Source of the DNA: an uncultured Bacteroidota bacterium
Lineage (GTDB): Bacteria > Bacteroidota > Bacteroidia > Bacteroidales > VadinHA17
Reading direction: 5' to 3'
Length of the DNA: 64,000 nt
NCBI GenBank assembly: GCA_963772715.1
Contig: CAVYYM010000033.1
Coordinates: 220,549 to 284,548, forward strand
In this document: positions 25,425 through 63,666 of the stretch, in pieces
How the letters are laid out: each line of letters starts with the position of its first letter
How positions within the stretch are numbered: the first letter of the stretch is position 1
Position numbers and translations under genes: made by a program
The notes under the pieces: generated by a model
The model's database searches: none
Seen by the model: the letters and a program-made list of their open reading frames with translations, nothing else
What the model was told of the DNA's origin: nothing

Positions 25425-26033
25425 TTATTTTGAATACAATTCAACGATAAGCTGTTCCTTAATATCTTCAGGAATATCCGTACGTTCCGGCAGATTCATG
25501 AACTTGCCTGCCATCTGTGTGTCATCCCACTCAAGCCACGAAAGCTTGGATGATTTTCTTGTTGTCAGTGAATCGACGATTGTTTCGAGTGATTTTGACT
25601 TCTCGCGCACACCGATTATGTCGCCCGGCTTAAGCTGGAAAGAAGGGATATTCACCACTCCTCCGTTCACCGTAATATGACGGTGTGAAACCAGCTGGCG
25701 CGCTCCGGCTCTTGTGGGAGCAACTCCAAGGCGGTAAATTACATTATCGAGACGTGATTCAAGGAGCTGAAGAAGGACCTCACCCGTGACGCCTTTTGTC
25801 CTGGAGGCTTTTTCAAATGTATTCCTGAACTGACGTTCAAGGATGCCATAAGTATATTTTGCCTTCTGCTTTTCCCTCAGCTGAACTCCGTATTCAGAAG
25901 TCTTTTTTCTCTTCTTGTTGAGCCCGTGCTGGCCGGGAGGGAAATTTTTCCTTTCGAGGTGTTTGTCTGGTCCGAAGATAGGTTCTCCGAATTTTCTTGC
26001 GACTCTTGATTTTGGGCCGGTATATCTTGCCAT
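25425..26033 (-). CDS. rpsD: 30S ribosomal protein S4
   Basis: 202-aa [24 protein letters not shown]... is canonical S4. Confidence 0.97.
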
Positions 26034-26067
26034 TTTCTTTTAAAATATTTGAACTTACTTATTTATT

Positions 26068-26133
26068 TATTTCGGATTTCGAATTTCGGATTTCGAAATT
26101 AAATCCGCAATCCGAAATCCGCAATCCGCAATT
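26068..26133. repeat. Tandem-unit hairpin, locus B (7-nt units ATTTCGG/ATTTCGA versus AATCCGC/AATCCGA) inside the alpha operon
   Basis: It has four heptamers per arm. On the transcribed minus-strand RNA I pair about 25 positions by hand, with two G-A mismatches and one G-U. It lies between the rpsK stop (26137) and the rpsD start (26033). Confidence 0.85.
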
Positions 26134-26136
26134 ATA

Positions 26137-26526
26137 TTAAACTCTCCTTCTTCCAGGTGCACGGCAGCCGTTATGCGGCATCGGGGTGACATCAATGATC
26201 TCAGTAACCTCTATTCCGACATTAGAGATCGCCCTGATGGCCGATTCACGTCCTGAGCCCGGTCCTTTTACGAAGACCTTCACTTTTCTGAGCCCCAGGT
26301 CGTAAGCAACCTTTCCGCACTCTTCAGATGCCATCTGCGCGGCATATGGAGTATTCTTCTTTGAACCCTTGAATCCCATTTTTCCGGAGGAGGCCCATGA
26401 AATGACCTGTCCTGAATTGTTGGTCAGGGTTACAATTATATTATTGAATGATGAATGTACATGTGCCTGGCCCGTGGGTTCAACCTTTACAATCCTCTTT
26501 TTTAATGCTCCAGTCTTCTTTGCCAT
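26137..26526 (-). CDS. rpsK: 30S ribosomal protein S11
   Basis: 129-aa ORF with the canonical S11 core ([24 protein letters not shown]). Confidence 0.97.
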
Positions 26527-42086: not shown

Positions 42087-44242
42087 ATGAAGACTACCAG
42101 ACTGACCAGATAAAGAATATCGTCCTCCTTGGCAACTCAGGCTCCGGAAAAACAATTCTGGCAGAAGCGATGCTCTTTAACGGCGGCGTTATAGAGCGAA
42201 GAGGAACCATAGAAGGCAAAAACACAGTCTCTGACTATCGCCCGATCGAACATGAAAACGGAAACTCGATATACTCCGTTGTCATGTACACTGAATACCA
42301 GAACAAGAAAATAAATATTCTCGACACACCTGGCCTGGATGATTTCAGCGGAGGGGTCGTTTCATCGCTCTATGCAGCCGATTCAGCCCTGATGCTTATC
42401 AATGCCCAGAACGGTGTTGAGGTTGGAACCGAGATCCATTTCAGGCATGCAGAGAAAGTTCACAAACCGATGATTATCGCAATCAACAGCCTTGATCATG
42501 AAAAAGCAAATTTCGACAAGGCAATCGAGATGATGAAGGAAAGACTGAGCAATAATGTAATTCTTGTTCAGTATCCCGTGAACGAAGGAATTGGATTCAA
42601 TTCGATTATTGATGTCCTTAAGATGAAAATGCTTCGTTACGGGAAAGAAGGAGGCAAAGCAGAGGTCGTTGAAATTCCTGCCGACCAGAAAGAGAGGGCA
42701 GAAGAACTTCATAATGCACTTGTCGAAAAGGCAGCTGAAAGTGATGAAGCGCTGATGGAAGTGTTCTTTGCCAATAATACACTCAGCGAGAGTGAGATCA
42801 GGAAAGGGATTGCACAAGGTATCCTGGCACGAGGCATGTTCCCGGTATTTTGTATTTCAGCAAAACAAAATACAGGCATCGACTGTATTATGGATTTCAT
42901 CATCAGCGAGGCACCTTCGATTTCCGACATGCCTGTACCGAAGAACAGCAAAGGCAACGAGGTTAAACCAAATCCTGCAGGTCCGGCATCGGTTTATGTC
43001 TTCAAGTCTGCAATCGAGGAACATATCGGAGAGATAAATTATTTCAGGGTATACTCTGGCAAGATCACTGAAAACCTGGATGTGATCAACTCCAATAACA
43101 GTACAAAGGAAAGATTGTCACAGCTTTATGTCTGTGCCGGAAAGAACAGGATAAGGGTTCCTGAACTTAATGTCGGAGATATCGGAGCCTTCGTAAAGCT
43201 GAAAAACACCAAGATGGATCATACTTTAAATGCTCCCGGCAACGACTGGAGATACGAAGGAGTGAAATTTCCCGCACCCAAGTACAGAACAGCCATCAAG
43301 GCTCAGAGCGAGAGCGATGATGAGAAACTTGGCGAAGCTCTCAACAAAATACACCTCGAGGATCCTACCATTATTATAGAGTACTCCAAGGAACTGAAGC
43401 AGATCATCGTCCACGGTCAGGGTGAATATCACCTGAACATAATGAAATGGCATCTCGATAATATTTATAAGATACCGACAAATTATAATTCTCCCAAGAT
43501 ACCATACCGTGAAACAATCACCAAGGCTGCACAGGCTGATTACCGACATAAAAAGCAGTCAGGGGGGGCGGGCCAGTTTGGTGAAGTACACATGATAGTC
43601 GAACCATATGTTGAAGGGATACCTGAGATGACCACGATGAAGATCGGTGGAAAGGATATGAAGATTTCCGTAAGGGGCAAGGATGAAATAGATCTCGACT
43701 GGGGCGGCAAGCTTATCTATTGCAACTGTATCGTTGGCGGATCGATAGATGCACGCTTCATGCCCGCAATTCTCAAAGGTATAATGGAGAAAATGGAGGT
43801 TGGACCTCTCACAGGCTCTTATGCCCGCGATATCAGAGTATATGTTTACGACGGCAAGATGCACCCTGTCGATTCAAATGAAATTTCTTTCAGGCTGGCA
43901 GGCAGGAATGCATTCAGCCAGGCTTTCAAGAACGCTAACCCGAAGATCCTCGAACCGGTTTATGATGTGGAAATAATGGTTCCTTCTGACCGTATGGGGG
44001 ATGTGATAAGCGACCTTCAGGGACGCCGAGGGATGGTACTCGGAATGTCCAGCGAAAAGAGATTTGAAGTTATCAAGGCAAGAGTTCCACTTGCCGAAAT
44101 GAATAAATATTCGACAGCTCTAAGCTCGGTAACCGGCGGACGTGCAATGTACACGATGAAATTCTCAGAGTATTCACAGGTTCCTGGTGATGTTCAGGAG
44201 ACAGTGATTAAAGCTTATACAGAAGAGGAAGAAGAAGAATAA
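42087..44242 (+). CDS. EF-G paralog (EF-G2-type) lacking the catalytic His; start-proximal frame problem
   Basis: ORF 42170..44242 (690 aa) has the EF-G domain order. Its switch II reads DTPGLDDF (Leu codon at 42335-42337) where canonical EF-G has DTPGHVDF, and NSLD replaces NKxD. The open frame extends upstream through the P-loop (KNIVLLGNSGSGKT) with no in-frame ATG. The nearby ATG at 42087 is out of frame by one base (2156 nt total). Confidence 0.85.
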
Positions 44243-44325
44243 AAAAATCTGTAGCGGCGTTGCATGCAAAATGGCGCTGGTGCATGCGCCAAGGCGGTGT
44301 TGCATGCAACGCCGCTACAGATTTT
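44243..44325. repeat. Tandem-unit hairpin, locus G (three about 20-nt units each containing GCATGC); probable bidirectional terminator
   Basis: The outer 24-bp inverted repeat is perfect: AAAATCTGTAGCGGCGTTGCATGC / GCATGCAACGCCGCTACAGATTTT. An inner unit reads GGCGCTGGTGCATGCGCC. T-runs follow on both strands. It lies between convergent genes. Confidence 0.85.
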
Positions 44326-50994: not shown

Positions 50995-51090
50995 AACGGC
51001 ACAAAGGCACAGAGGCGCAGGGGCTCAAAGGCTAAATCGCTGCTGTGCCGTTGAGCCGTTGAGCCGTTGAGCCATTGAACCTTTATACCT
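50995..51090. repeat. Tandem-unit hairpin, locus D (8-nt units nCAnnGGC versus TGAGCCGT)
   Basis: The left arm is AACGGCAC AAAGGCAC AGAGGCGC AGGGGCTC AAAGGC. The right arm is TGTGCCGT TGAGCCGT TGAGCCGT TGAGCCAT TGAACCTT TATACCTT. The conserved GGC/GCC and CA/TG cores pair. It lies between the divergent tetR and phzF-like starts. Confidence 0.8.
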
Positions 51091-51900: not shown

Positions 51901-51998
51901 AAAGGCTCAATGCCTCAGCGGTGCAATGGCGCAAAGGTTTTTGGAAAAATTTATTATCTTGCCATTGTGCCTTTATGCCCTTGCGCCGTTGTGCCATT
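51901..51998. repeat. Tandem-unit hairpin, locus E (8-nt units, same class as locus D)
   Basis: The left arm is AAAGGCTC AATGCCTC AGCGGTGC AATGGCGC AAAGG. An AT-rich loop follows. The right arm is TGCCATTG TGCCTTTA TGCCCTTG CGCCGTTG TGCCATTA. It starts 2 nt after the phzF-like stop. Confidence 0.75.
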
Positions 51999-52031
51999 AA
52001 AATATTGATTACTAACCAAACAACAATACAA

Positions 52032-52454: not shown

Positions 52455-52543
52455 GCGCTATCATGCGATCATGCTATCGTGCAATCGTGCTATCCTTGAC
52501 ATTTTTTGATTGCATATGCGATTGCAAGATTGCATGATCATCA
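52455..52543. repeat. Tandem-unit hairpin, locus F (8-nt units ATCnTGCn versus GATTGCAn)
   Basis: The left arm is GCGCTATC ATGCGATC ATGCTATC GTGCAATC GTGCTATC. The right arm is GATTGCAT ATGCGATT GCAAGATT GCATGATC. It lies between convergent genes and abuts both stops. Confidence 0.8.
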
Positions 52544-57769: not shown

Positions 57770-58531
57770 CTATACAGCTACTGCTTCGGGTTCTGCAGGT
57801 TTTTCTTTCTCGATAAGAACCGACTGGTACAGTGAGGCGAATGAGCTTTTTACCCAGATGTCTGCAGCTAATACCCCGACAAACATAAGGATGAATCCAA
57901 ATATATAGATGAAGAACGAAACAAATCCCATAAGGAATATTGTCCATCCATGGCCCCTCGTAAGCTTCCAGCTCAATTCAACCGATTCAATAGGATCAAG
58001 TTTCTTATCCATAACAATATATGGCACGAAAGCCAGACGGCATGCTATGATTATACCAGGAACAATCAGCGCAAAAAGACCTATGGCGACAAGGGCAAAA
58101 ACCAGCAGGTTGGCGAGTATGATATTCAGGTAGTTGGTCCAGAAACCCTTTATGAGCCATTCAAAATCGGGTTTGATTTTCCTTACAGATTCCACGAAGA
58201 TCATCTTGGCGCCATATTTTATTACCGGCAATGCCAGGAATGTATAGGCGAGAGCCAATATACCGATAAAAATCGCCAGAGCTCCCAGCGAGGCGATACC
58301 GAATATCTGGCCCCAGTCTCCATTCCAGTGATCAAAGTTGAAATTCCCGAAATCATGTTTGTCAAAATTGAAATTAAGGCCCCCCATCGGACCAGTAAGA
58401 GCCGCGAGTACTATAACCACCAGCAATAATCTCAGGAAGTTGTTAAACATTACATTCCACCCGGTCCCAAAACTGTCGCCAAAGGTTGGGAACAGTTTAT
58501 ATTCTCTGATTTTTTCCATCGTTGCATTCAT
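57770..58531 (-). CDS. Multi-pass integral membrane protein (DUF975-like, tentative)
   Basis: 253-aa ORF with 5-6 hydrophobic helices. I recognise no catalytic motif. Confidence 0.65.
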   Translation of the reverse strand: MNATMEKIREYKLFPTFGDSFGTGWNVMFNNFLRLLLVVIVLAALTGPMGGLNFNFDKHDFGNFNFDHWNGDWGQIFGIASLGALAIFIGILALAYTFLALPVIKYGAKMIFVESVRKIKPDFEWLIKGFWTNYLNIILANLLVFALVAIGLFALIVPGIIIACRLAFVPYIVMDKKLDPIESVELSWKLTRGHGWTIFLMGFVSFFIYIFGFILMFVGVLAADIWVKSSFASLYQSVLIEKEKPAEPEAVAV

Positions 58532-58651: not shown

Positions 58652-58721
58652 AATTTCGAATTTCGAATTGCGGATTGCGGATTGTAAAAAAATCCGCAAT
58701 CCGCAATCCGCAATCCGAAAT
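58652..58721. repeat. Tandem-unit hairpin, locus C (same CGGATTG/AATCCGC heptamer family as locus B)
   Basis: The sequence is AATTTCG AATTTCG AATTGCGG ATTGCGG ATTG, then a TAAAAA loop, then AATCCGC AATCCGC AATCCGC AATCCGA AAT. The central arms pair perfectly. It lies between two divergently oriented gene starts. Confidence 0.85.
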
Positions 58722-58744: not shown

Positions 58745-59674
58745 ATGCTCAGGATCCTCTTCTATCTGGTTTTTATTTTAACCGTGGCTCTTACGTCTGC
58801 AGGTATCATTCTTGCATCACGGCTCCGAAACAACAATAGATCGGAAATATTCTCCCCTCTTCTCTATTACCAGGTCTTCATATTTACCTTTGGATTCTAC
58901 GGGATATGGGGTCAAGTGCTCATAAAGGCATTCCTGGCTGCCTACATTTCCCCCGGGCTTTTTACCCGCTTTTCCAATATGGCACTATTGATGGGGCTTC
59001 CATTCCTGGTATTTGCATGGCTGATGCTGATACAGTTCGCATCAGGTATCTCAGGCAGAAAGACAGGCGGATGGGCTGTTTTCTCATTCCTTTTCGGAAA
59101 TTTCTCCATACTCTTCATCCTGGGTTATTTTATCGCGAGCAAGAATATAACCGAACCCGCCAGGCTCGTCAAGAACTATTATATCCTGATGAGTGTGATC
59201 TGGTCGCTGATTGCTTCATACCTTATCCATTTGCCAATAAAAGGTAAGGAGACGGTTCATGAGTATGACAGAAAAATAACATGCACCCATGATTTCCATC
59301 ATCAGTATGTCTCAATGTATACCGCTGGTGTTTTATACTTCGGAATCGTGGCTGGCATTGATCTTCATCTTTGTCTTTTTCCTTGGAAACACATTTCTTC
59401 CTGTATATTTCAGCTATGGGACACTACGCCCATTTCTGCAACAGAACCTGCAAGAGACCTGTCATTTGAGCAATTCTGCAGAAAATTCGAAGTATCGCCG
59501 CGTGAGACCGATATTGTTCGGGAAATATGTAATGGACTAAGCAATAAGGAAATATCTGAAAAACTATTCATCAGCCTGCAGACTGTAAAAGACCATACTC
59601 ACCGGATTTATATCAAGACCAATGTAAGAAGCAGGGTGCAGCTGATCAATTTAGTAAAAGGAAACTCGAAATGA
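58745..59674 (+). CDS. Multi-TM N-terminal domain fused to a LuxR-type HTH (possible hidden frame excursion 59285-59460)
   Basis: 309-aa open frame with five clear N-terminal TM helices and a C-terminal LuxR HTH (SPRETDIVREICNGLSNKEISEKLFISLQTVKDHTHRIYIKTNVRSRVQL). The overlapping +1 ORF 59289..59540 encodes two more TM-like helices. Confidence 0.7.
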   Translation: MLRILFYLVFILTVALTSAGIILASRLRNNNRSEIFSPLLYYQVFIFTFGFYGIWGQVLIKAFLAAYISPGLFTRFSNMALLMGLPFLVFAWLMLIQFASGISGRKTGGWAVFSFLFGNFSILFILGYFIASKNITEPARLVKNYYILMSVIWSLIASYLIHLPIKGKETVHEYDRKITCTHDFHHQYVSMYTAGVLYFGIVAGIDLHLCLFPWKHISSCIFQLWDTTPISATEPARDLSFEQFCRKFEVSPRETDIVREICNGLSNKEISEKLFISLQTVKDHTHRIYIKTNVRSRVQLINLVKGNSK

Positions 59675-59734: not shown

Positions 59735-60344
59735 TTACAGAAACACCAATACTCGGCCTCCTTCAAATTCCAGTTCAAAATGATCTCCATTTGCTTCATT
59801 AAGTGTCGCTTCCCACCAGTTTTTCAGCTTTCTTTTGATGAGAGGATAACGCAATCCTGAAGAGGTGATCTCCGTTTCAGGATTGATAGAAAAGATTGAA
59901 ACCTGCTGTCCGGGAAATGTTTCAATCTTGCAGCTCTTATGGAACGGAAGGAAGATCCCGGTGTCAGTGACCATTTTAACATTCACAATTTCGGAATATT
60001 CTGCAAGCAATGAAATATTTCCTATAGTATGATCCTCTCTTTTTCCTGTTGCTCCCAAGTATTATGATATCATTATAACCTGATGCATGACACCATTCAA
60101 CTGCCTTGGTAAGGTCATTTGTCTCCTGATTATCATCAATATAGATACGGTCTGAAAATCTGTTTCGTAATTCATCGCTCAGAGAATCCATATCACCAAC
60201 AATTGCATCAGGTATCTTGCCTGAATTTATCAGGCTTTCAGCACTTCCGTCGCAGCATACAATCAAATCAGCACTTTCAAGATATCCAAGAGGCATTTCA
60301 TGAACGGGAAAAGCTCCGTCGGCAACAATAACTGCGTTTGACAT
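59735..60344 (-). pseudogene. thiN: Thiamine pyrophosphokinase, one frameshift
   Basis: ORFs 59976..60344 (..DLIVCCDGSAE...VGDMDS...DDNQETNDLTKA...DIIILG) and 59735..60058 (GATGKREDHTIGNISLL...) overlap in different frames. The junction is at a G3 run near 60052-60056. The total length is 610 nt, not a multiple of 3. Confidence 0.8.
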
Positions 60345-60350
60345 TGAATT

Positions 60351-60993
60351 TTATTTATTCACGTTTAATGATTTCTTCCATTCTATCAGCCCCACGAACG
60401 ACATAGCACAATATACAATATATAGTATTACTGTCGGATACAGATCCCTGGTAAAAAAGAGCGCCGCGGCAGCTAATATTGACAACAATCCACAGAAACC
60501 AGTGTTCATAGATCTTCCGGGCCAGCATCCATGTTGCTATAACCGAAAGGGAGGTTATAAACGAATCCCACGCGGGCACCGGCGAATCAGTAAGTCTGTC
60601 AAGTATAATCCACATCAGGAAAAACAATAGCAGGAATACCACAGTAAGAATTATTCCTGTATTACCAGTTTAAGTCTGGTTACTTTTAGCTTTTCTTTGC
60701 TCAAATGCACCTGTCGCCGTCCTCGATAGCTATTCAGCTGAGCCTGCGCCTCGCCTATCGCCTTTGATCCACCAATACCATCCCAAAATACTGATAACCA
60801 GATAATATCCCTGAAGGCTCATATCTGCATAAAGCTTACCTGTGAAGAATATCCATATATAAACCGCAGATGTTATAATCCCCACCGGCCACAGCCAGAT
60901 ATTCTGTCTGATTTCCAGTATCACATACAGTATTCCGGTGACTGCTCCGAAAAGTTCAATATAATTATTTGATATCCAGTCAGATATAATCAT
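60351..60993 (-). pseudogene. pnuC: PnuC-family (PnuT-like) vitamin transporter, at least three frame changes
   Basis: ORFs 60730..60993 and 60355..60642 are PnuC-like (WPVGIITSAVYIWIFF; SLSVIATWMLARKIYEHWFLWIVVN). In-frame stops lie between them. The conserved C-terminus LAAAALFFTRDLYPTVILYIVYCAMSFVGLIEWKK lies in another frame and ends at 60351. Confidence 0.75.
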
Positions 60994-63504: not shown

Positions 63505-63595
63505 CAGGATACTCTTCGTTCCCTCCGCCGGCATTATCCGGATCAGGTTTTAAGGGTATGATCTCAGCCTGTAATATTAAGGCACCCCATTTTCA
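63505..63595 (-). promoter_or_regulatory. TPP (THI-box) riboswitch
   Basis: The minus strand reads GGGGUGCCUUAAUAUUACAGGCUGAGAUCAUACCCUUAAAACCUGAUCCGGAUAAUGCCGGCGGAGGGAACG. It matches the TPP aptamer consensus closely (GGGGUGC..GCUGAGA..ACCC..ACCUGAUCyGGAUAAUGCCrGCG.AGGGA). It ends about 55 nt upstream of the receptor ATG. Confidence 0.92.
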
Positions 63596-63666
63596 GAAAG
63601 CACAAAGTTAAAAACCTTTTCCCTGTATTGCAATTTTTTTTAAATTAGCATGGAAAAAACTGATCT

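Follow-up and report, generated by a model that had tools for sequence, protein, structure and literature searches.

Heptamers are reported to be the most frequent long simple-sequence repeats (SSRs) of prokaryotes, and polymerase slippage has been proposed as their source (Mrazek 2007, as cited in PMC4679880 and PMC4692102). Dispersed heptameric SSRs with the units GGGAATC and GGGGA(C/T)T have been described in Xanthomonas and Nostoc, respectively. These repeats are mostly intergenic, lie mainly between open reading frames (ORFs) that are aligned, near the stop codon of the upstream ORF, are rare between divergent ORFs, and vary in unit number between close relatives; four units are preferred, which the authors tied to G-quadruplex formation, and each Xanthomonas genome has 70-75 convergent inverted pairs that could fold into a stem-loop (Rehm et al, 2015, PLoS One; PMC4692102). 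A further heptamer, TAACTGA, forms direct repeats in Beggiatoaceae, Cyanobacteria and some Bacteroidetes (MacGregor 2015; PMC4679880). Here we describe a heptamer-array hairpin between rpsK and rpsD, the genes for ribosomal proteins S11 and S4, in 64,000 nucleotides of DNA from an uncultured Bacteroidales bacterium (contig CAVYYM010000033.1, positions 220,549 to 284,548); this whole stretch is referred to as the window. Our comparisons show that it is one copy of a dispersed, hypervariable palindromic repeat, (ATTKCGG)4 - short loop - (CCGMAAT)4, which arose by insertion or expansion 4 nt past the stop codon of rpsK, recently in the history of this lineage. It belongs to a widespread family of GGATT-core heptamer-array palindromes that typically sit right behind the upstream stop codon inside operons. 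Its closest described relatives are the GGGAATC/GGGGATT repeats, with which it shares every tested feature but the G-tract. To the reading as a whole, namely that the hairpin is an intercistronic stem-loop like the repetitive extragenic palindromes (REPs), we assign a probability of about 0.5.

The alpha-operon genes rpsM, rpsK, rpsD, rpoA and rplQ lie on the window's minus strand (ORFs with Pfam matches), and the rpsK-rpsD spacer measures 103 nt (26034-26136). The repeat array begins 4 nt after the rpsK stop codon (26137-26139). Read on the plus strand, positions 26069-26132 consist of ATTTCGG, ATTTCGA, ATTTCGG and ATTTCGA, the five bridging bases AATTA, then AATCCGC, AATCCGA, AATCCGC and AATCCGC, and a final AAT, which confirms the original prediction of four ATTTCGG/ATTTCGA units opposite four AATCCGC/AATCCGA units. 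A tandem-repeat finder (TRF) reported period-7 arrays at 26069-26097 and 26102-26132, and an inverted-repeat finder reported arms of 32 nt that are 81% complementary. The hairpin had also been said to fill nearly the whole spacer; this was overstated, as it takes up 64 of the 103 nt (62%). When folded as RNA, the transcribed (minus) strand reached -30.6 kcal/mol (z = -4.6) and the plus strand -24.0 kcal/mol (z = -3.3), so that the transcribed strand does indeed fold better, as had been proposed. The minimum-free-energy stem spans 26073-26128, starting 8 nt past the rpsK stop and ending 39 nt before the rpsD start; the two G-A mismatches noted earlier recur in it as two G.A 1x1 loops, and the earlier figures of about 25 pairs and one G-U pair are replaced by 23 bp and two G.U pairs. 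On the sense strand the stem is followed by the tail AAAUAAAUAAAU; a G+C-containing stem is present and a U-run is absent.

A related hairpin had been noted in a divergent spacer at ~58.7 kb, and we could place it at 58653-58721 (Table 1). Its 31-nt arms are 90% complementary, it folds at -41.4 kcal/mol on the plus and -45.1 kcal/mol on the minus strand, and the ORFs on its two sides are divergent, giving it a gene context unrelated to translation. The pattern AATCCGMAATCCGM, allowing at most one mismatch, has 10 matches in the window, all of them in the two hairpin loci, where 0.16 would be expected by chance; none of 100 shuffles reached 10. A looser search of the window for GGATT-NN-GGATT recovered no array beyond the two hairpins. 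A terminator scan flagged neither copy in the window, with no T-run after the rpsK-rpsD stem on either strand, and no sigma-70-like promoter was found at either copy by a scan that does not cover Bacteroidota-type promoters. Exact look-ups of the S4 protein of the window and of the 253-aa ORF beside the second copy matched no record. We also considered whether this genome might be rich in short tandem repeats generally and rejected the idea: the window has 10 period-7 duplications versus 3.7 in shuffles, and 4 of the 10 belong to the two hairpins.

The hairpin varies between near-identical strains. Three metagenome contigs from independent samples (L001-L003) encode an S11 protein identical to that of the window; compared with the window, their rpsK has 2-3 differences over 390 nt and their rpsD has 5 over 405 nt, a flank divergence of 0.5-1.2%. 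Their hairpin has three GCGGATT units versus four in the window, a clean 7-nt indel, and the other arm carries about seven substitutions. With one unit fewer and these substitutions in strains so closely alike, the hairpin is hypervariable; it changes at roughly ten times the rate of its flanks, in part by entire units. Its presence at the rpsK-rpsD site is thus fixed in the species-level lineage. Of the two strands, the sense strand gives the better fold in each allele (-30.6 kcal/mol against -24.0 for the antisense strand in one, -21.4 against -12.6 in the other), owing to C/U variation opposite G, which could reflect either tolerance at the RNA level or deamination of cytosines on the coding strand. 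Unit-number polymorphism of this kind among near-identical strains is a property of phase-variable SSRs; a placement in the promoter spacing or reading frame of a variable surface or host-interaction gene, where unit number would switch expression, is not seen for the 26-kb copy, which lies between the S11 and S4 genes, or for the family copies, which lie between housekeeping genes, though the 58.7-kb copy, in a divergent promoter region, might have one.

A protein-guided scan with one genome per species yielded 80 loci with relatives of S4, all from Bacteroidota and mostly from Bacteroidales, the best of them being 93% identical and from an uncultured Bacteroidales; the rpsK-rpsD spacer could be taken from 78 of these loci. 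Among the ten closest relatives (L004-L013; S4 identity 80-93%) the spacer is 35-45 nt long, folds at 0 to -4.8 kcal/mol, and contains neither a hairpin nor a heptamer array. No heptamer array of this kind was present across 1.37 Mb of the 80 loci. When aligned with the nearest relatives, the extra sequence of the window is mainly the hairpin, directly after the rpsK stop, and the flanks otherwise align; of the leader at 26034-26068, only the 5' part aligns with the short spacer of the relatives, and ~17 nt before the rpsD start are absent there. The original prediction had suggested a link between the hairpin and S4 autoregulation, and had named short, unstructured spacers in close relatives as a result that would speak against a conserved function; such spacers are what the closest relatives have.

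In around 30 more distant Bacteroidales, among them Parabacteroides, Muribaculaceae and Tannerellaceae, the spacer is long and structured and contains a different conserved motif, which is the S4-Bacteroidia leader (Rfam RF03139). This leader shares with the hairpin its site just upstream of rpsD, in the rpsK-rpsD spacer of Bacteroidales. It differs in being a conserved motif of 34 positions (…GCGGCUGC…), present in Parabacteroides, Duncaniella and many others, to which the window spacer has no match, either at the gathering threshold or at E<=10 within 25950-26250; positive controls scored 41.8 bits (L024) and 39.9 bits (L049), the gathering score being 34.7 bits. The nearest relatives of the window have neither that leader nor the hairpin. 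No other ribosomal leader was detected by Rfam in the window spacer even at E<=10, and at a permissive threshold the hairpin returned only look-alikes of microRNA precursors far below their gathering scores. RF03139 was placed at 9922-9960 in L024, at 9881-9918 in L049 and at about 30 further loci within L024-L083; in the Muribaculaceae loci L041, L049, L059 and L068 the rpsK-rpsD spacers reach 250-496 nt, and the Marinilabilia locus L073 has a variant of the motif (…CTCTATAATCTTGCGGCTGTCA…) that falls below the Rfam gathering score.

Palindromes of the same design are common outside the window. The arrangement (GCGGATT)n…(AATCCGM)n was found in at least 120 metagenome stretches, on contigs of 37-72% GC among the matches listed. 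In IMG/VR, 67 stretches hold three consecutive GCGGATT-type units (an exact triple in 54), compared with 1, 12 and 1 stretches for permuted control heptamers of the same composition; the published units gave 3 (Xanthomonas GGGAATC) and 24 (Nostoc GGGGATT) stretches. Most of the IMG/VR matches are one-sided arrays, and about one in ten has an inverted partner. One 68% GC contig with a heptamer hairpin (L269) also carries two Acido-Lenti-1 RNAs (RF01687; 7744-7789 and 8409-8454), which hints at an origin in Acidobacteriota, and an AT-rich family contig encodes a SusC-like receptor. Together with the Bacteroidales window, these two contigs point to a family that is probably spread over several phyla. 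On three GC-rich contigs (L163, L174 and L235), near-identical arms and related 16-nt loops stand at different loci, a pattern that suggests a master copy being dispersed and not slippage at each site independently. No Rfam family covers the hairpins at 11 family loci or that of the window, and no paper in the searchable literature contains the 14-mers or discusses the heptamer GCGGATT. When one family hairpin was compared by blastn with plasmids and phages, nothing matched, possibly because of the low-complexity filter. The arm pattern C-A-C-C of the window copy was considered as a mark of descent shared with the GC-rich copies and rejected, being one of several patterns of similar frequency.

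On some viral contigs, (GCGGATT)4 arrays seem by eye to lie inside ORFs (L087 1581-1608 and other IMG/VR loci); the L087 stretch translates on the minus strand as MARLKAPLAEAVQSAIRNPQSAIENVERQIAELIA. Since none of the six frames has a stop codon within the arrays, a change by one unit inside an ORF would shift the frame. Phage contigs among L084-L150 also have other heptamer arrays near the GCGGATT arrays, for example GGTAGCC, TTGCCGT, ATTGCAA, CACGCAA and ATTGAGG, and on some of them (L123, L126, L131) 4-6 arrays lie within ~10 kb.

We examined the gene context of a family set of 85 hairpins, 83 from metagenome loci (among the matches listed) and the two copies of the window. Because the arrays contain TTG and have no stop codon in six frames, they had to be masked before gene calling; unmasked calling put 33 hairpins inside genes, an artefact that was gone after masking. 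The caller reproduced the known genes of the window, and 18 of 20 flanking proteins had full-length Pfam matches. With 20 hairpins at contig edges set aside, 65 could be classified: 52 between co-directional genes, 8 between divergent and 5 between convergent ones. For co-directional hairpins the median distance from the upstream stop is 6 nt (<=8 nt in 37 of 51) and the median distance to the next start is 21 nt, downstream start positions being approximate. The stop-side distance was the shorter in 41 cases and the longer in 9 (p = 3e-6), and this bias was kept in 11 of the 15 cases with a downstream distance above 60 nt (read from the context table), so that sparing the ribosome-binding region is not the whole reason for it. 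Among the flanking pairs are queA-tgt, recA-alaS, a cysteine-desulfurase-like gene with mnmA, rplU-rpmA, ispA-dxs and tssK-dotU. The placement between rpsK and rpsD is typical of the family.

The architecture of the family is similarly regular. Median fold energy is -37 kcal/mol, and Watson-Crick pairing reaches at least 90% at six of the seven heptad positions; at position 4, G or T stands opposite C or A with a significant association (odds ratio 3.9, p = 4e-4). Viral arrays of two, three, four and five units number 33, 40, 44 and 4, so that more than four units are rare. Where loci had not been selected for arm order, the G-rich arm always came first (6 vs 0), as it does in both window copies; the same comparison by IMG/VR search gave 1 vs 0 matches, too few to be informative. 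One example (L201 2756-2815) fills the rplU-rpmA spacer from 4 nt after the L21 stop to 5 nt before the L27 ATG. Its arms are ATTGCGG x4 versus AATCCCA x3 plus AATCCGA, in which only the GGATT/AATCC core pairs, and this suggests that the core, and not full complementarity, may be the conserved part. G.A mismatches had been considered as a marker of the transcribed strand; a hand tally gave 21 vs 15, the energy test was null, and the idea was rejected.

Set against the Xanthomonas and Nostoc repeats, the two window loci, two copies in 64 kb, have the same period-7 tandem units, four to each arm, arranged as convergent pairs, and at rpsK-rpsD the number of units varies between strains (4 vs 3). 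The family is likewise found mainly between co-directional genes beside the upstream stop, with few divergent cases, and Nostoc GGGGATT is one base from GCGGATT. However, the family units GCGGATT/TCGGATT have only GG and no tract of 3-4 G, so that the G-quadruplex rationale for a preference for four units does not apply to them. In addition, GCGGATT is not confined to one genus but spans contigs of 37-72% GC, phage contigs and a Bacteroidales host. The TAACTGA repeats (PMC4679880) are also intergenic heptamer arrays, some in ribosomal protein operons and one upstream of the S4 gene, and they too are missing from close relatives with the same gene order. They differ in their unit, in being direct arrays just upstream of start codons (with one inverted case), and in having been proposed as single-stranded binding sites rather than stems.

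Among palindromic elements, the hairpin is most usefully compared with the REP, BIME (bacterial interspersed mosaic element) and REPIN sequences of Enterobacteria and Pseudomonas. These are short imperfect palindromes, dispersed, extragenic and strain-variable, often within operons or after gene ends, whose transcribed stem-loops are able to protect upstream mRNA. REPs, in contrast, are not built of tandem heptamers, and their sequences are particular to the species; a GTAG or CGTC tag is conserved in them (PMC3733652), and they are tied to a RAYT/TnpA_REP gene (PMC8266576). By inspection, the arrays of the window and of the listed family members have no GTAG/CGTC tag at their borders, and no target-site duplication is seen at the borders of either window copy. 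Unlike miniature inverted-repeat transposable elements, the hairpin consists of two arrays and a 2-7 nt loop only, with no internal segment. Intrinsic terminators share with it a stable G+C-containing stem soon after a stop codon, but the hairpin has no U-tract and lies inside an essential operon, and the family is rare between convergent genes.

How might such an element act in the alpha operon? As it lies inside the operon, with no detectable promoter or terminator around it, the hairpin would be co-transcribed with rpsM-rpsK-rpsD-rpoA-rplQ, and the mRNA would form a stem of ~23 bp. At 8 nt past the rpsK stop and 39 nt before the rpsD start, such a stem should leave the AU-rich rpsD initiation region free. 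REP/BIME and intercistronic RNase III stems protect the upstream segment of an mRNA from 3' exonucleases or are themselves cleaved, and, by analogy, a generic hairpin effect on the operon mRNA is plausible. The effect, if any, would be that of a passive REP/BIME-like stem-loop blocking 3'-to-5' exonucleases, or of an RNase III-type target, and not that of a sequence-specific S4 operator; the stability of the rpsM-rpsK segment would then be uncoupled from that of rpsD-rpoA-rplQ, and the ratio of upstream to downstream products altered. A stem so near the stop codon might also disturb translation termination, as REPs within 15 nt of stop codons reportedly do.

Several points weigh against the REP-like stem-loop. 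All RNA-level effects of the hairpin are ones that we infer. Across the family the two strands fold equally well (sense better in 26, antisense in 26; p = 0.84), so that the G.U asymmetry at rpsK-rpsD is no general signature of RNA-level selection, and this symmetry is as much to be expected of a DNA-level or neutral element as of one that acts as RNA. At position 4, about 25% of the heptads have a mismatch (G.A or T.C). The metagenome sample was chosen by a pattern that required two perfect units and a palindromic arrangement, and the gene contexts come from a simple codon-bias heuristic caller checked on the window genes and 20 flanking proteins. Finally, the sister repeats of Xanthomonas and Nostoc are without demonstrated function (PMC4692102).

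Of the other explanations, the one that survives best, possible though clearly short of an even bet, is that the hairpin is neutral or selfish passenger DNA, a slippage-prone heptanucleotide palindrome tolerated away from ribosome-binding regions and with no role in the alpha operon. Its absence from the closest relatives, its roughly tenfold faster evolution, its changes by whole units, the lack of a family-wide strand bias in folding and the frequent mismatch at heptad position 4 are all consistent with this, as is the attribution of long prokaryotic heptamer SSRs, the commonest class, to slippage (Mrazek 2007, as cited in PMC4679880 and PMC4692102). However, one and the same heptamer recurs on contigs whose GC ranges from 37 to 72% and outnumbers permuted heptamers 5- to 60-fold, array length falls sharply above four units, there is a single arm order, and the anchoring to stop codons is kept in long spacers. 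A fixed unit, a length limit, an arm order and such anchoring are together hard to obtain from slippage alone.

It is unlikely that the hairpin is instead a DNA-level site, where a protein would bind the convergent GGATT heptads or these would extrude to form a cruciform or a hairpin in single-stranded DNA, with a mobilising transposase or recombinase, or gyrase or a nucleoid protein as proposed for REP, as the possible partner. The strand symmetry, the exclusive arm order (6 vs 0 viral loci and both window copies) and the copy-and-paste dispersal suggested by the arms and loops of L163, L174 and L235 would suit such a site; against it, no associated gene was identified, inspection found neither a flanking tag of the GTAG/CGTC type nor a target duplication at the borders, and DNA binding does not obviously explain the anchoring to stop codons.

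An internal attenuator or terminator that lowers transcription of rpsD-rpoA-rplQ relative to rpsM-rpsK is more improbable still. A stable stem does lie directly after the stop codon, and hairpins without a U-tract are reported to terminate transcription in some bacteria; but there is no T-run on either strand, the terminator scan flags neither copy, and the essential genes rpoA and rpsD lie downstream without a detectable promoter. In the family, moreover, the element is rare between convergent genes (5 of 65), and members often end within ~20 nt of the next start, so that read-through would be required.

We give least credence, very little indeed, to a lineage-specific S4 autoregulatory leader that has replaced the S4-Bacteroidia motif: although the hairpin occupies the RF03139 site of other Bacteroidales just upstream of rpsD, and the sense strand folds better in both rpsK-rpsD alleles, it matches neither RF03139 nor any ribosomal leader even at E<=10, is absent from the ten closest relatives, changes fast in sequence, recurs at a non-ribosomal locus of the window and between unrelated gene pairs in other organisms, and belongs to a family whose sense and antisense strands fold equally (26 vs 26, p = 0.84). 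The link to S4 autoregulation, and with it the view of the hairpin as a conserved S4 regulatory site, is thus not supported.

Table 1. Hairpin arms, leader and flanking genes at the two heptamer-array loci of the window.
Feature	Position	Strand	Basis and remarks
rpsK (ribosomal protein S11)	26137..26526	minus	ORF list; Pfam PF00411, 7.8e-44
rpsD (ribosomal protein S4)	25425..26033	minus	ORF list; Pfam PF00163 and PF01479
5' arm on transcribed strand	26101..26132	minus	UUGCGGA, UUGCGGA, UUUCGGA, UUGCGGA; TRF period 7, 4.4 copies
3' arm on transcribed strand	26069..26100	minus	units UUCGAAA and UCCGAAA; ATTTCGG/ATTTCGA on plus strand
AU-rich unstructured rpsD leader	26034..26068	minus	alignment; unpaired in RNA fold
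Second copy, left arm	58653..58683		ATTTCGA x2 then ATTGCGG x2; TRF, inverted repeat
Second copy, loop	58684..58690		7 nt; inverted repeat, fold
Second copy, right arm	58691..58721		AATCCGC x3 then AATCCGA; TRF, inverted repeat
Flanking ORF without Pfam match	57770..58531	minus	start ~120 nt from second copy
Flanking ORF with C-terminal LuxR/GerE helix-turn-helix domain	58745..59674	plus	start 23 nt after second copy

The window has some other features of note. A second kind of short-unit array, built of octamers, is found at 50998-51078, 51960-51999 and 52457-52539. The divergent spacer between a TetR-like and a PhzF-like ORF contains an inverted octamer pair, with GGCACAAA-type units facing GCCGTTGA x4; of the next two spacers, one has a one-sided TGCCNTTG x5 array and the other an octamer pair GCTATCAT… / GATTGCAA. 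A palindrome at 44244-44325, with 41-nt arms that are 85% complementary, no loop, and an A-run and a T-run at its flanks, lies between convergent genes, 2 nt past the stop of the ORF at 42170-44242, and looks like a long bidirectional terminator. A thiamine pyrophosphate (TPP) riboswitch (Rfam RF00059, 57.8 bits) was found on the minus strand at 63506-63599. At 59735-60642, also on the minus strand, three short ORFs overlap or abut (59735-60058, 59976-60344 and 60355-60642); they resemble pieces of one or two genes, which suggests frameshifts, pseudogenes or sequence errors.

A broader reading, which we put forward tentatively and would not bet on, is that the GGATT-core palindrome represents a distinct, cross-phylum REP-like class, kept by a trans-acting partner and serving as general punctuation of polycistronic mRNAs. 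Its carriers include Bacteroidales, probably Acidobacteriota, many soil and sediment bacteria, and phage contigs; its fixed architecture consists of a G-rich arm that is always 5', about four units per arm and a position a few nucleotides from a stop codon inside operons. The partner may be an enzyme that mobilises the element, or a protein that binds RNA or DNA and reads registers of 7 nt, and the class may act through segmental stability, RNase III processing or disturbed termination at the adjacent stop. If this were true, the four-unit preference of bacterial heptamer repeats would be unrelated to G-quadruplexes.

For the window itself, the outcome is deflationary: the hairpin is no conserved regulator of the ribosomal operon and should not be annotated as an S4 leader. 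Its wider value lies in the recurrence of one heptamer palindrome behind stop codons, in housekeeping operons of very different base composition as well as in phage contigs, where arrays stop at about four units, the arms keep one order and indels comprise whole units. Reports of dispersed heptamer repeats go back to 2007, with details for Xanthomonas and Nostoc following in 2015, yet these repeats still lack an explanation. Since a family that lacks G-tracts shares both the four-unit preference and the proximity to stop codons, the G-quadruplex explanation is removed for these shared features, and the family offers a broad and easily searched data set in which to look for a co-occurring gene or RNA-processing signature.

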